Shown here piece after piece: positions 1,537-54,289 of a stretch of DNA of 64,000 nt. Source of the DNA: Escherichia coli. GTDB taxonomy: Bacteria > Pseudomonadota > Gammaproteobacteria > Enterobacterales > Enterobacteriaceae. A model generated the notes under the pieces. The model saw only the letters and a list, made by a program, of their open reading frames with translations. It made no database searches and had not been told where the DNA came from. The position numbers and the translations under genes are program-made. Each line of letters begins with the position of its first letter. Positions within the stretch are counted from its first letter, which is position 1. The stretch lies in the NCBI RefSeq assembly GCF_003334815.1, contig NZ_QOWO01000015.1; one strand, given 5' to 3'.

Positions 1537-2156
1537 CCGGTGTGTGCAATATACGAAAAAAAAGCCCGTACTTTCGTACGAGCTCTTCTTTAAATATGGC
1601 GGTGAGGGGGGGATTGACTCGCTTCGCTCGCCCTGCGGGCAGCCCGCTCACTGCGTTCACGGTCTGTCCAACTGGCTGTCGCCAGTTGTCGAACCCCGGT
1701 CGGGGCTTCTCATCCCCCCGGTGTGTGCAATATACGAAAAAAAAGCCCGTACTTTCGTACGAGCTCTTCTTTAAATATGGCGGTGAGGGGGGGATTGACT
1801 CGCTTCGCTCGCCCTGCGGGCAGCCCGCTCACTGCGTTCACGGTCTGTCCAACTGGCTGTCGCCAGTTGTCGAACCCCGGTCGGGGCTTCTCATCCCCCC
1901 GGTGTGTGCAATATACGAAAAAAAAGCCCGTACTTTCGTACGAGCTCTTCTTTAAATATGGCGGTGAGGGGGGGATTGACTCGCTTCGCTCGCCCTGCGG
2001 GCAGCCCGCTCACTGCGTTCACGGTCTGTCCAACTGGCTGTCGCCAGTTGTCGAACCCCGGTCGGGGCTTCTCATCCCCCCGGTGTGTGCAATATACGAA
2101 AAAAAAGCCCGTACTTTCGTACGAGCTCTTCTTTAAATATGGCGGTGAGGGGGGGA
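1537..2156. repeat. Tandem direct repeat array, 181-bp unit x about 3.4 copies, apparently identical copies, ending in the 3' end of serX
   Basis: Identical ORF translations restart at 1542, 1723, 1904 and 2085 (period 181); each unit contains tggcggtgaggggggatt (a copy of the tRNA-Ser 3' end) and the hairpin gcccgtactttcgtacgagc with an A/T run. Confidence 0.9.
2096..2139 (-). terminator. Rho-independent terminator of serX (hairpin plus T-run on the minus strand); the same hairpin recurs in each 181-bp repeat unit
   Basis: Minus strand reads gagctcgtacgaaagtacgggc followed by tttttttt immediately 3' of the tRNA. Confidence 0.6.
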
Positions 2157-2227
2157 TTCGAACCCCCGATACGTTGCCGTATACACACTTTCCAGGCGTG
2201 CTCCTTCAGCCACTCGGACACCTCACC
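2140..2227 (-). tRNA. serX: tRNA-Ser (anticodon GGA), 88 nt with long variable arm
   Basis: Reverse complement GGTGAGGTGTCCGAGTGGCTGAAGGAGCACGCCTGGAAAGTGTGTATACGGCAACGTATCGGGGGTTCGAATCCCCC...CACCGCCA; T-loop GGTTCGAATCC, CCA end, GGA anticodon. Confidence 0.95.
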
Positions 2228-4870: not shown

Positions 4871-5362
4871 ATGAACATACTTCTCTCTATTGCAATCACA
4901 ACAGGCATTCTCTCCGGTATCTGGGGATGGGTGGCTGTTTCCCTGGGCTTACTAAGCTGGGCGGGCTTCCTGGGCTGTACGGCCTACTTTGCCTGCCCGC
5001 AAGGTGGGCTGAAAGGGCTGGCGATCTCCGCTGCAACCCTGCTTAGTGGCGTGGTGTGGGCGATGGTCATTATTTACGGTAGTGCACTGGCACCACATCT
5101 GGAAATTCTCGGTTATGTCATAACCGGTATTGTCGCGTTTCTGATGTGTATTCAGGCCAAACAGCTGCTGCTTTCATTTGTTCCGGGGACGTTTATAGGC
5201 GCATGCGCGACGTTTGCCGGGCAGGGTGACTGGAAACTGGTGTTACCTTCGCTGGCGCTTGGGCTGATATTTGGTTACGCAATGAAAAACAGTGGCCTGT
5301 GGCTGGCGGCGCGTAGTGCAAAGACGGCGCACCGTGAGCAGGAAATCAAAAATAAAGCGTGA
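4871..5362 (+). CDS. ycdZ: Inner membrane protein YcdZ (DUF1097), 163 aa
   Basis: ORF 4823-5362; internal ATG at 4871 (MNILLSIAITTG...) gives the 163-aa hydrophobic protein. Confidence 0.8.
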   Translation: MNILLSIAITTGILSGIWGWVAVSLGLLSWAGFLGCTAYFACPQGGLKGLAISAATLLSGVVWAMVIIYGSALAPHLEILGYVITGIVAFLMCIQAKQLLLSFVPGTFIGACATFAGQGDWKLVLPSLALGLIFGYAMKNSGLWLAARSAKTAHREQEIKNKA

Positions 5363-13798: not shown

Positions 13799-17981
<4,183 letters not shown>

Positions 17982-17991
17982 AAACGTAGTT

Positions 17992-18090
17992 GCCTGATGC
18001 GCTACGCTTATCAGGCCTACATCGTTCCTGCAATTTATTGATTTTGCAAGACTTTGTGGGTCGGATAAGGCGTTCACGCCGCATCCGGCA
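17992..18090. repeat. BIME/RIP-type element: two REP palindromes flanking a central motif
   Basis: gcctgatgcgctacgcttatcaggcctac ... caatttattgattttgcaag ... ggtcggataaggcgttcacgccgcatccggca. Confidence 0.8.
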
Positions 18091-18106
18091 AAAACAACGA
18101 GCCAAT

Positions 18107-18137
18107 AAAAATACCGGCGTTATGCCGGTATTTTTTT
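18107..18137 (+). terminator. Rho-independent terminator after the opgGH operon
   Basis: Hairpin ataccggcgttatgccggta followed by ttttttt. Confidence 0.7.
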
Positions 18138-18153
18138 ACGAAAGAGGTATCAA

Positions 18154-18381
18154 ATGCGTTTAATTGTGGTGAGCATCATGGTGACCTTGCTGAGTGGCTG
18201 TGGCAGCATTATTAGTCGCACTATACCGGGGCAGGGGCATGGCAACCAATATTATCCCGGTGTGCAATGGGATGTGCGTGACTCCGCCTGGCGTTATGTC
18301 ACGATCCTTGATCTGCCATTCTCTCTGGTTTTTGATACTTTACTGCTGCCGATCGACATTCATCATGGCCCGTATGAGTGA
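18154..18381 (+). CDS. yceK: Small lipoprotein YceK, 75 aa
   Basis: 75-aa ORF with lipobox LLSGC. Confidence 0.85.
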   Translation: MRLIVVSIMVTLLSGCGSIISRTIPGQGHGNQYYPGVQWDVRDSAWRYVTILDLPFSLVFDTLLLPIDIHHGPYE

Positions 18382-18756
18382 TTAACGTTCATCCCACTCA
18401 TCAGCTGCTGCGCGTCCTTCCTCGGTATCCAGCGGTGGCTCAAGCTGAAATTCCCCCTCGTCCCATTCATGTAATGTATTCTCTTCCTGCCACTCCTGGC
18501 GTATCTCTATCTCATCATAGTCGCCATCAAAAACACTTTGCGCGGCTTCACCGCTAAGCATAGGTAAACATTCACCTTCTTCCCCTTCGTCGGCAAAAAA
18601 CTCAACTTGCCACATGATGTCGCCGTCCTGCAAAACGTATTTTTGGGCATTGAACTGTTGCACATTCGCATCTTCGGCGTCGATGCCGGGGTTGTCTGCA
18701 AGAAATTCTTCGCGTGCAGCGTCAATGGCTTCTTCAAGCGTTGCGTACATGGTCAT
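18382..18756 (-). CDS. msyB: Acidic protein MsyB, about 124 aa
   Basis: Highly acidic translation MTMYATLEEAIDAAREEFLADNPGIDAEDANVQQF...; the ORF offers an extra Met at 18759. Confidence 0.88.
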   Translation of the reverse strand: MTMYATLEEAIDAAREEFLADNPGIDAEDANVQQFNAQKYVLQDGDIMWQVEFFADEGEEGECLPMLSGEAAQSVFDGDYDEIEIRQEWQEENTLHEWDEGEFQLEPPLDTEEGRAAADEWDER

Positions 18757-22434: not shown

Positions 22435-22475
22435 ATATCATTGCCGGATGCGTGCCATCCGGCAACATTTCACGC

Positions 22476-49515: not shown

Positions 49516-50475
49516 ATGAAAACAGAGACTCCATCCGTAAAAATTGTTGCTATCACCGCTGACGAAGCGGGGCAACGTATCGATAACTTTTTGCGTACCC
49601 AATTGAAAGGCGTACCAAAAAGTATGATTTACCGTATTTTGCGTAAAGGCGAAGTGCGGGTGAACAAAAAACGTATTAAGCCTGAATATAAACTCGAAGC
49701 GGGTGATGAGGTGCGTATTCCACCGGTTCGCGTTGCTGAGCGGGAAGAAGAGGCGGTTTCGCCACATCTGCAAAAGGTGGCGGCGCTGGCGGACGTCATC
49801 TTATATGAAGATGATCACATCCTGGTGCTGAATAAACCTTCCGGTACGGCGGTACATGGCGGCAGTGGTTTAAGCTTCGGCGTTATTGAAGGTTTGCGGG
49901 CGTTGCGCCCGGAAGCGCGGTTCCTTGAACTGGTTCATCGTCTTGACCGGGACACCTCAGGTGTTTTGCTGGTAGCGAAAAAACGCTCGGCGTTGCGTTC
50001 TCTGCATGAGCAATTACGTGAAAAAGGGATGCAAAAAGATTACCTGGCGCTGGTGCGCGGTCAGTGGCAGTCGCATGTGAAGAGCGTTCAAGCACCGTTA
50101 CTGAAAAATATTCTGCAAAGCGGCGAACGTATCGTGCGTGTGAGTCAGGAAGGCAAACCGTCGGAAACACGCTTTAAAGTGGAAGAACGCTATGCATTTG
50201 CCACCCTGGTGCGTTGTAGCCCGGTAACAGGGCGTACTCACCAGATCCGTGTGCATACACAATATGCGGGTCATCCGATTGCCTTTGACGATCGCTACGG
50301 TGACCGTGAATTTGACAGGCAGCTCACTGAAGCAGGCACGGGATTAAATCGCCTGTTCCTGCACGCTGCAGCGTTGAAGTTTACTCATCCGGGGACCGGT
50401 GAGGTGATGCGTATCGAAGCTCCGATGGATGAAGGTTTGAAGCGTTGTTTGCAAAAGCTGCGTAACGCGCGCTAA
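49516..50475 (+). CDS. rluC: 23S rRNA pseudouridine(955/2504/2580) synthase RluC, 319 aa
   Basis: Recognised translation with S4 domain and RluA-family catalytic motif HRLDRDTSG. Confidence 0.95.
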   Translation: MKTETPSVKIVAITADEAGQRIDNFLRTQLKGVPKSMIYRILRKGEVRVNKKRIKPEYKLEAGDEVRIPPVRVAEREEEAVSPHLQKVAALADVILYEDDHILVLNKPSGTAVHGGSGLSFGVIEGLRALRPEARFLELVHRLDRDTSGVLLVAKKRSALRSLHEQLREKGMQKDYLALVRGQWQSHVKSVQAPLLKNILQSGERIVRVSQEGKPSETRFKVEERYAFATLVRCSPVTGRTHQIRVHTQYAGHPIAFDDRYGDREFDRQLTEAGTGLNRLFLHAAALKFTHPGTGEVMRIEAPMDEGLKRCLQKLRNAR

Positions 50476-50506
50476 TACAAGCATATAAACCTGATAATGG
50501 GCGGTT

Positions 50507-50578
50507 GGCCTGATAAGGCGTTTACGCCGCATCAGGCCGCCAGCACCGATTGCCGGATGCGACGTAACCACATCCGGC
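50507..50578. repeat. BIME: REP palindrome plus second inverted REP-like hairpin downstream of rluC
   Basis: ggcctgataaggcgtttacgccgcatcaggcc ... gccggatgcgacgtaaccacatccggc. Confidence 0.8.
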
Positions 50579-50586
50579 GCAAAAAA

Positions 50587-51172
50587 CTATCCCATCAGCG
50601 GGTTTTTCCCTTCCCGACGTAACATCTGACACAGCGCGATTAGCGGTAAACCAACCAGCGTGTTAGGATCACGCCCCTCTAAACGCTCAAACAGCGTAAT
50701 GCCAAATCCTTCACTCTTAAAGCTACCCGCGCAGTGCAGGGGATGCTCTTTACGCACGTAATTATCAATCTCCGCCTCGCTCAGGTGACGGAAATGGACG
50801 TCAAAAGGCTCCACTTCTGTTTGCAGATGCCCATTCGCCGAATTAAACAACGCCAGTCCAGTAATAGAAGGTGACGATATTGCCGCTGGCTTTGCGTAAT
50901 TGCAGACGGGCATTTTCTTCCGTTAACGGTTTACCGGTGATTTCGCCATCAAGAACACATACCTGGTCTGAACCAATAATTAAATGATCCGGATAACGTG
51001 ACGCCAGAGATTGCGCTTTTTCTTGTGCCAGTCGAAGCACCAACTGTCGCGGTGATTCGTCGCTGCGTGGGGTTTCGTCGACCTCTGGTGCTGCACATTC
51101 AAAAGAGATTTGTAGTTTTTCCAGAAGAGCGCGACGCCATGGCGAGGTGGAGGCTAAAATAAGTTTAGGCAT
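50587..51172 (-). pseudogene. yceF: Maf-family nucleotide pyrophosphatase yceF interrupted by an apparent +1 frameshift (586 bp instead of 585)
   Basis: Two overlapping minus-strand ORFs (50843-51211 and 50587-50913) in different frames together span one Maf-like protein; the frame switches at ttctattactgg near 50861-50866. Confidence 0.75.
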
Positions 51173-53335: not shown

Positions 53336-54289
53336 ATGTATACGAAGATTATTGGTACTGGCAGCTATCTGCCCGAACAAGTGCGGACAAACGCCGATTT
53401 GGAAAAAATGGTGGACACCTCTGACGAGTGGATTGTCACTCGTACCGGTATCCGCGAACGCCACATTGCCGCGCCAAACGAAACCGTTTCAACCATGGGC
53501 TTTGAAGCGGCGACACGCGCAATTGAGATGGCGGGCATTGAGAAAGACCAGATTGGCCTGATCGTTGTGGCAACGACTTCTGCTACGCACGCTTTCCCGA
53601 GCGCAGCTTGTCAGATTCAAAGCATGTTGGGCATTAAAGGTTGCCCGGCATTTGACGTTGCAGCAGCCTGCGCAGGTTTCACCTATGCATTAAGCGTAGC
53701 CGATCAATACGTGAAATCTGGGGCGGTGAAGTATGCTCTGGTCGTCGGTTCCGATGTACTGGCGCGCACCTGCGATCCAACCGATCGTGGGACTATTATT
53801 ATTTTTGGCGATGGCGCGGGCGCTGCGGTGCTGGCTGCCTCTGAAGAGCCGGGAATCATTTCCACCCATCTGCATGCCGACGGTAGTTATGGTGAATTGC
53901 TGACGCTGCCAAACGCCGACCGCGTGAATCCAGAGAATTCAATTCATCTGACGATGGCGGGCAACGAAGTCTTCAAGGTTGCGGTAACGGAACTGGCGCA
54001 CATCGTTGATGAGACGCTGGCGGCGAATAATCTTGACCGTTCTCAACTGGACTGGCTGGTTCCGCATCAGGCTAACCTGCGTATTATCAGTGCAACGGCG
54101 AAAAAACTCGGTATGTCTATGGATAATGTCGTGGTGACGCTGGATCGCCACGGTAATACCTCTGCGGCCTCTGTCCCGTGCGCGCTGGATGAAGCTGTAC
54201 GCGACGGGCGCATTAAGCCGGGGCAGTTGGTTCTGCTTGAAGCCTTTGGCGGTGGATTCACCTGGGGCTCCGCGCTGGTTCGTTTCTAG
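53336..54289 (+). CDS. fabH: 3-oxoacyl-ACP synthase III FabH, 317 aa
   Basis: Translation [45 protein letters not shown]... Confidence 0.97.

Follow-up and report, generated by a model that had tools for sequence, protein, structure and literature searches.

The window, by which we mean the whole stretch of 64,000 nucleotides (64 kb) analysed here, is a segment of an Escherichia coli K-12-type chromosome that aligns over its full length to positions 1,095,426-1,159,425 of NC_000913.3 with 99.975% identity. Three repeat elements lie in it: one between opgH and yceK (site 1), one between flgF and flgG (site 2) and one between rluC and yceF (site 3). The MG1655 annotation places all three between annotated coding sequences, and it agrees with the gene names opgH, flgF/flgG and rluC that an earlier note, written from the letters of the sequence, had attached to them. 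The RefSeq feature table of MG1655 holds no repeat_region features; GenBank U00096 presumably labels these elements RIP/REP. The positions of the elements, their parts and the flanking genes are collected in Table 1.

When compared to MG1655, the window carries 14 substitutions and two one-base insertions (16 differences over the 64 kb), none of which falls inside the three elements. They are found at 1693, 1733, 2416, 4320, 8000, 18868, 24591, 25799, 28670, 30383, 36001, 41150, 50863, 51113, 52321 and 60755; C-to-T and G-to-A changes make up eight of the 14 substitutions, and both insertions are a single A. Differences of this density exceed what we would expect for K-12 stocks, and the density suggests a mutagenised derivative or sequence errors. 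The insertion at 50863 splits yceF, the gene for 7-methyl-GTP pyrophosphatase, into open reading frames of 122 aa and 108 aa. Since none of the 5,426 complete E. coli genomes matches the window over 50300-51000 without a difference, the yceF insertion is either private to this sequence or an error. Elsewhere in the window a 181-bp unit is repeated in 3.4 perfect tandem copies (1536-2158) directly downstream of the tRNA-Ser(GGA) gene serX (2140-2227, minus strand), so that the array overlaps the 3' end of the tRNA. Every copy of this unit matches the Rfam family RtT (46.3 bits). In the window they show 100% identity to one another; MG1655 differs within the array at 1693 and 1733.

Table 1. Positions in the window of the three repeat elements, their parts and the neighbouring genes, with the folding energies of the predicted RNA hairpins.
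Feature	Position	Strand	RNA hairpin	Remarks
opgH, stop codon	17979-17981			MG1655 annotation
Site 1, BIME-1 core (z1-L-y)	17992-18089			opgH-yceK
Site 1, z1-type REP, GCCTGATGCGCTACGCTTATCAGGCCTAC	17992-18020	+	-13.2 kcal/mol, z -4.5	matches the z1 columns of 17 other-species BIME-1 copies
Site 1, L linker of BIME-1	18021-18055	.		includes the motif at 18030-18050
Site 1, perfect match to the IHF core consensus, AATCAATAAATTG (consensus WATCAANNNNTTR)	18031-18043	-		inside the L linker
Site 1, y-type REP, GTGG GTCGGATAAGGCGTTCACGCCGCATCCGGC	18056-18089	+	-18.2 kcal/mol	inverted relative to z1; repeat family D2 and profile
Probable terminator hairpin, AAAAATACCGGC-GTTAT-GCCGGTATTTTT and T run	18107-18137	+		12-bp stem in predicted fold
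yceK, start	18154			MG1655 annotation
flgF, end	39133			MG1655 annotation
Site 2, left outer motif, GGATACATGACAAGTATAAGTT	39140-39161	+		resembles the family left flank GAGACTGATGACAAACGCAACAT (flank alignment)
Site 2, BIME-1 core (z1-L-y)	39162-39259			flgF-flgG
Site 2, degenerate z1-type REP, GCCCGATGCGCAAGTTTATCGGGTCTAT	39162-39189	+	-10.7 kcal/mol, z -2.6	
Site 2, L linker	39190-39225	.		
Site 2, IHF-like core, AATCGATAAATTG	39201-39213	-		one consensus mismatch, ATCAA to ATCGA
Site 2, canonical y-type REP	39226-39259	+	-20.9 kcal/mol	inverted; reference copy of repeat family D2
Site 2, right outer motif, AAGAAGACATATGCACTTTGTCACTAATCC	39260-39289	+		matches the family right flank AAGAACAAAGCGCACTTTGTCAGCAATCT
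flgG, start codon	39305			MG1655 annotation
rluC, stop codon	50473-50475			MG1655 annotation
Site 3, REP pair	50504-50578			rluC/yceF
Site 3, first REP, y/z hybrid, GTTG GCCTGATAAGGCGTTTACGCCGCATCAGGC	50504-50537	+	-22.8 kcal/mol	family D2 at 91% identity
Site 3, S-like linker, CGCCAGCACCGATT, 14 nt	50538-50551	.		aligned to the naRNA4 model linker
Site 3, second REP, truncated or degenerate, GCCGGATGCGACGTAACCACATCCGGC	50552-50578	+	-15.5 kcal/mol	
yceF, stop codon	50587-50589	-		convergent with rluC; MG1655 annotation

Architecture and class of the three elements

Repeat finding recovers a 34-nt REP unit (family D2) at 18056-18089, 39226-39259 and 50504-50537, with 91-100% identity, and the REP sequences that had been noticed at opgH, at flgF/flgG and at rluC are indeed present. 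All six REP units are predicted to fold, with energies from -10.7 to -22.8 kcal/mol, and five of them beat all 200 shuffles; 4 of 200 shuffles reached the energy of the z1 unit at site 2. The foot of the REP is exact at 18016-18020 (CCTAC) and at 39226-39229 (GTAG) and is found in variant form at 18056 (GTGG), 39185-39189 (TCTAT) and 50504 (GTTG), and the second REP of site 3 has no recognisable GTAG/CTAC foot. Sites 1 and 2 display the same order on the plus strand: a z1 REP whose last letters are CCTAC at site 1 and TCTAT at site 2, a linker, and a y REP that begins with GTGG at site 1 and with GTAG at site 2. Their L linkers are 35 nt and 36 nt long, respectively, and those of other copies 33-37 nt.

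Even with three mismatches allowed, the window holds two occurrences and no more (18030-18050 and 39200-39220) of GCAATTTATYGATTTTGCRAG, the flanking motif that had been read at opgH and flgF; 0.02 occurrences are expected by chance, and none of 100 shuffles contained two. This motif is the L linker of BIME-1, in which the IHF site lies. A 65-nt direct repeat (D3, 86% identity) is likewise common to the opgH and flgF copies only, and in a three-way alignment sites 1 and 2 align over ~105 nt. The proposal of a central motif at all three sites therefore holds for opgH and flgF and fails for rluC, where the shared part is the REP unit only.

The elements were also searched with an nhmmer profile built on 17 BIME-1 copies, all of them from other Escherichia species, namely E. 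albertii, E. whittamii, unnamed Escherichia species and divergent 'E. coli' species representatives. Site 1 is matched from 17989 to 18093 (model positions 2-106, E 7.5e-31), site 2 from 39160 to 39263 (model positions 3-106, E 1.3e-22) and site 3 in its y part only (E 9.7e-8), and the 64 kb contain no other significant match to the profile. The copies had been collected from a genome collection by the L-core pattern GCAATTTATYGAWTTTGC, which matched at least 120 stretches; among the matches listed, ~22 proved to be genuine BIME-1 copies, each of them in Escherichia-type sequence, and the remaining ones were chance matches without REPs. As the L core was the criterion of selection, its conservation among the aligned copies is partly by construction, and the pattern is too specific for the scan to be informative on the distribution of BIME-1 outside Escherichia. 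Typical Escherichia-type BIME-1 copies were seen in an 'Alkalicoccobacillus porphyridii' assembly (L105, a 720-bp contig with coverage ~1), in a 'Collinsella' MAG contig (L110) and in a 'Pseudocitrobacter' MAG (L037-L039); such copies in contigs of unrelated taxa probably reflect contaminated or wrongly binned public assemblies.

With their z1 and y REPs inverted and in single copy, sites 1 and 2 match the 17 copies column for column, and site 3 does not. BIME-1 is defined by z1 and y REPs in single copy and a long conserved L linker, often with an IHF site (PMC3333891). The architecture and the independent profile, with which both copies align over their full length, confirm sites 1 and 2 as full-length BIME-1 (RIP/RIB), and the earlier suggestion that the opgH and flgF copies represent one larger repeat family was correct. 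All three sites belong to the REP/BIME repeat family of the E. coli chromosome. In the flanks, the BIME-1 family has conserved outer motifs, of which the left is approximately GAGACTGATGACAAACGCAACAT and the right approximately AAGAACAAAGCGCACTTTGTCAGCAATCT; they probably correspond to the external motifs A and B of earlier work on BIMEs.

At site 1 only the first half of the right outer motif is found, followed by a separate hairpin (18107-18137) downstream of the element, with 16 nt between it and the start of yceK. The hairpin has a symmetric A-tract and T-tract, and is probably an intrinsic terminator that would act in both directions, as judged from the predicted fold; a simple scanner did not list it on the plus strand. 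At site 2 the z1 REP is degenerate, and its stem has been retained through a paired change from T..A to C..G. The extent of 39226-39262 that had been given for the flgF element fits its y REP and falls short of the element as a whole, the core of which begins at 39162. Since both outer motifs are present, site 2 runs from ~39140 to 39289 and fills almost the whole flgF-flgG spacer.

Site 3 starts 28 nt past the stop codon of rluC and is a single unit, in which the second REP is truncated and lacks the 3' half of z2. Its alignment with the Rfam family naRNA4 (RF02564; y-S-z2) runs from end to end and scores 54.3 bits, short of the gathering score of 59.5, and neither the L motif nor the IHF consensus is found in its linker. 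By these alignments site 3 is best regarded as a single degenerate BIME-2-like REP pair and not as a BIME-1.

A few other positions in the window resemble REPs. The hairpin TTGCCGGATGCGTGCCATCCGGCAA at 22441-22465, in the trhO-yceI spacer, has a REP-like start (GCCGGATGCG) and was rejected as a REP, the profile giving it no support (E 2.4); it is a simple terminator-like stem-loop, probably the shared terminator of the convergent trhO and yceI. Matches to GCCGGATGCG/GCCTGATGCG at 54063 and 59575 lie within the coding sequences of fabH and mltG, and were set aside as chance matches.

The L linker and its IHF site

The IHF consensus matches the window eight times, with 2.7 matches expected, so that the consensus alone is weak evidence. 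In our analysis, the weight of the IHF site comes from its fixed place in the conserved L linker together with the published binding of IHF to the class; the latter was described by Oppenheim 1993 and Boccard & Prentki 1993, according to the passages of PMC3184786 and PMC12306157 that cite them. The L linker in the family consensus (TTGAAT) departs from the core at one position, as does site 2 (TCGAT). An APEC strain with the same element retains TTGAT at the site 2 core, where K-12 has TCGAT, and the change in K-12 is therefore a derived polymorphism.

L-linker-like sequence was found in all 5,426 complete E. coli genomes, with a median of at least 27 places per genome, and these counts are a lower bound (at least 40 pieces in 1,263 records). 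Queries that include the y REP match each E. coli genome at 26-28 places in the median. The linker was also considered as a structured RNA, and this was rejected: its own hairpin has a predicted energy of -4.4 kcal/mol (z -1.75), no better than shuffles.

Distribution of the elements and the flgF-flgG spacer

Site 1 is present in 5,391 of the 5,426 E. coli genomes, and it is found at the orthologous position in another Escherichia species as well (sequence L114). Site 3 is kept in place in 5,418 of them; megablast found no match to it elsewhere in E. coli genomes (median of one place per genome), the sequence of this pair being too divergent to match other REPs by that program.

The flgF-flgG spacer (39134-39304) exists in two main forms. 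The BIME-1 allele is carried by 3,477 of the 5,426 genomes, while 1,944, O157:H7 included, carry an allele that is 34 nt shorter and holds a G-rich, hairpin-forming unit of ~56 nt, CCCTCGCCCCTTTGGGGAGAGGGTTAGGGTGAGGGG, with a median of 15 places per genome. Because about one third of E. coli genomes are without the BIME-1 core at flgF-flgG, this core is non-essential there. The alternative repeat is probably BoxC, judging by the consensus of BoxC and by the matching size and copy number. BoxC has been described as a 56-bp repeat with 22-32 copies (PMC2267715). BoxC-like units are flanked by similar outer motifs (CAGACTGATGACAAAG ... CAAAGTGCGCTTTGT) or by REPs at other loci, among them gntP-fimH (L127, 169-410), ybdD-cstA, ytfQ-ytfR and a Pseudocitrobacter-labelled contig (L039, 179-330).

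Where the BIME-1 is present in the spacer, it has not decayed uniformly. The divergent 'E. coli' SCPM-O-B-8794 (L035, ~5180-5300) has an orthologous flgF-flgG BIME-1 whose L core, GAATTTGC, is that of the family consensus; its z1 REP is better than that of K-12, and its y REP has an internal deletion (GTAGGTCGCATCCGAC). The K-12 and SCPM-O-B-8794 copies being damaged differently, one and the same insertion at flgF-flgG is decaying in different ways in different lineages.

Both spacer alleles retain the same outer motifs, of which the left one, GA[CT]TGATGACA..., and the right one, ...TTGTCA[GC][CT]AATCC, are kept in all E. coli. The flanks of the BoxC-like units at the other loci suggest a single mosaic frame common to BIME-1 and BoxC composites, and the dimorphism fits both the mosaic nature of BIMEs and rearrangement-prone spacers. 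A further-reaching reading, which we put forward as speculative and rather unlikely, is that flgF-flgG is a cassette locus with fixed outer motifs and an interchangeable BIME-1 or BoxC-like interior. If it were true, BIME-1 and BoxC composites would be one mosaic frame with an exchangeable interior, and the punctuation of the flagellar rod operon between flgF and flgG would vary among E. coli lineages. The spacer dimorphism is the sole part of the present observations that goes slightly beyond the textbook picture of BIMEs, and the two alleles offer, within a flagellar operon, a natural experiment on the effects of repeats on operon expression.

Proposed function, competing readings and known relatives

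From what is described for the family, of which this is the defining activity, IHF would bind the L linker between the REPs and bend the DNA sharply, an effect expected to be strong at site 1, with its perfect core, and weaker at site 2, with its one mismatch. All three elements would lie within transcribed 3' or intercistronic regions: site 1 in the 3'UTR of opgGH, upstream of the terminator; site 2 inside the flgBCDEFGHIJ operon; and site 3 between convergent rluC and yceF. In the transcripts the G+C-rich REP hairpins (-10.7 to -22.8 kcal/mol), again by analogy with the family, would block 3'-to-5' exonucleases and partly attenuate read-through, which would bias expression to the upstream gene and, at the convergent pair, to both genes. 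As to their origin, the elements would have arisen by mobilisation or recombination of REPs by a REP-associated Y1 transposase (TnpA-REP) and not by local invention.

Two of the hairpins are close to a stop codon, the z1 hairpin of site 1 beginning 10 nt past that of opgH and the second hairpin of site 3 ending 8 nt from that of yceF. REPs within ~15 nt of a stop codon can, as Liang, Rudd and Deutscher (2015) reportedly found, stall terminating ribosomes, and REPs near a stop codon are said in the same work to lower protein yield. According to a 2026 preprint, REPs are local terminator and stabiliser elements of the 3'UTR, which attenuate read-through and protect the upstream mRNA. In the same preprint, mRNA half-life shows no general dependence on terminal REPs and the variance from locus to locus is large, so that the effect at these three loci may be small or nil.

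The lack of a genome-wide half-life effect also speaks for the main rival of the functional reading, in which the three elements are selfish or neutral repeat remnants, BIMEs that have no host function here and are tolerated downstream of genes. We hold this to be less likely than not for the set as a whole, and it is most plausible for the visibly decaying site 2, given that decay there differs by lineage (in K-12 the z1 REP has degenerated and the IHF core is mutated, in the divergent Escherichia genome the y REP has an internal deletion) and that the spacer holds a different repeat in the 1,944 genomes with the BoxC-like allele. Against it, site 1 persists in nearly all E. coli genomes and in another Escherichia species, with its perfect IHF core and hairpins intact; the z1 stem of site 2 is kept by a compensatory paired change, and REP-dependent stabilisation and attenuation have been published at other loci. 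That the three would be chance G+C-rich hairpins, or ordinary intrinsic terminators that look like REPs, has a negligible probability. All three do sit just downstream of stop codons, in terminator territory. This reading is nonetheless refuted by the repeat finding, the motif count and the independent profile: copies are 86-100% identical over 34-105 nt, profile E-values go down to 7.5e-31, dozens of copies exist per genome, and no T run follows the REP hairpins, the terminator of site 1 being separate from them.

A rival of another kind arises from Rfam, in which the family ES036 (CssrF, RF02751), typed as sRNA, matches the minus strand at 18013-18055 with 47.9 bits, above its gathering score of 37.6, as if site 1 were a small RNA gene on the minus strand beyond its being a repeat of the DNA and the 3'UTR. 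However, the 43 positions of the ES036 model correspond to the reverse complement of the BIME-1 L linker and the foot of the z1 REP, and the model scores 39.6-47.5 bits on the L linkers of BIME-1 copies at unrelated loci and in other species (L086, L105, L110, L114), and only 14 bits at site 2. Matches to ES036 are therefore to be read as copies of the repeat, which is what the model describes. Besides, no promoter-like site was found on either strand in 17800-18400, the hairpin of the linker is weak, and a transcript of the minus strand would have to cross the terminator at 18107-18137. A literature search found no relevant papers on ES036/CssrF. We consider a small RNA gene at site 1 to be highly unlikely.

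We thus retain the reading of the three sites as REP/BIME elements, and the BIME identity, the proposed IHF and RNA mechanism and the origin by REP transposase, taken together, appear to us very probable. The result has little importance beyond correct annotation, BIME-1/RIP being textbook repeats of E. coli. Awareness of BIME-1 is useful all the same, as the elements can bias the expression of flanking genes, bind IHF and confuse predictions of sRNAs or terminators; the Rfam 'sRNA' family ES036, which turns out to be the BIME-1 linker, is a case in point. Follow-up would be of value for the z1 hairpin next to the opgH stop codon and for the flgF-flgG dimorphism only.

The element types are already known, and the class has been described since the early 1990s. 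The closeness to known systems differs between the sites. BoxC is probably represented by the ~56-nt hairpin unit of the alternative flgF-flgG allele, the BoxC-like unit being absent from the window itself. Site 3 resembles BIME-2, where y and z2 REPs alternate and are joined by short S linkers, in its inverted REP hairpins, its 14-nt linker and its end-to-end alignment with naRNA4 in both orientations; it differs in being a single unit and not a tandem array, in the y/z hybrid character of its first REP and in its sub-gathering score. Sites 1 and 2 share with BIME-1 (RIP, repetitive IHF-binding palindromic element; RIB, reiterative ihf BIME) the inverse z1 and y REPs with CTAC/GTAG feet facing inward, the linker of ~35 nt with the IHF consensus, and the single-copy, extragenic state. 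Site 2 differs from the type as a decayed copy, with a degenerate z1 loop and foot (TCTAT for CCTAC) and one mismatch in the IHF core, and in that it sits within an operon and not at an operon end. Site 1, at the 3' end of its transcription unit, shows no difference from BIME-1.
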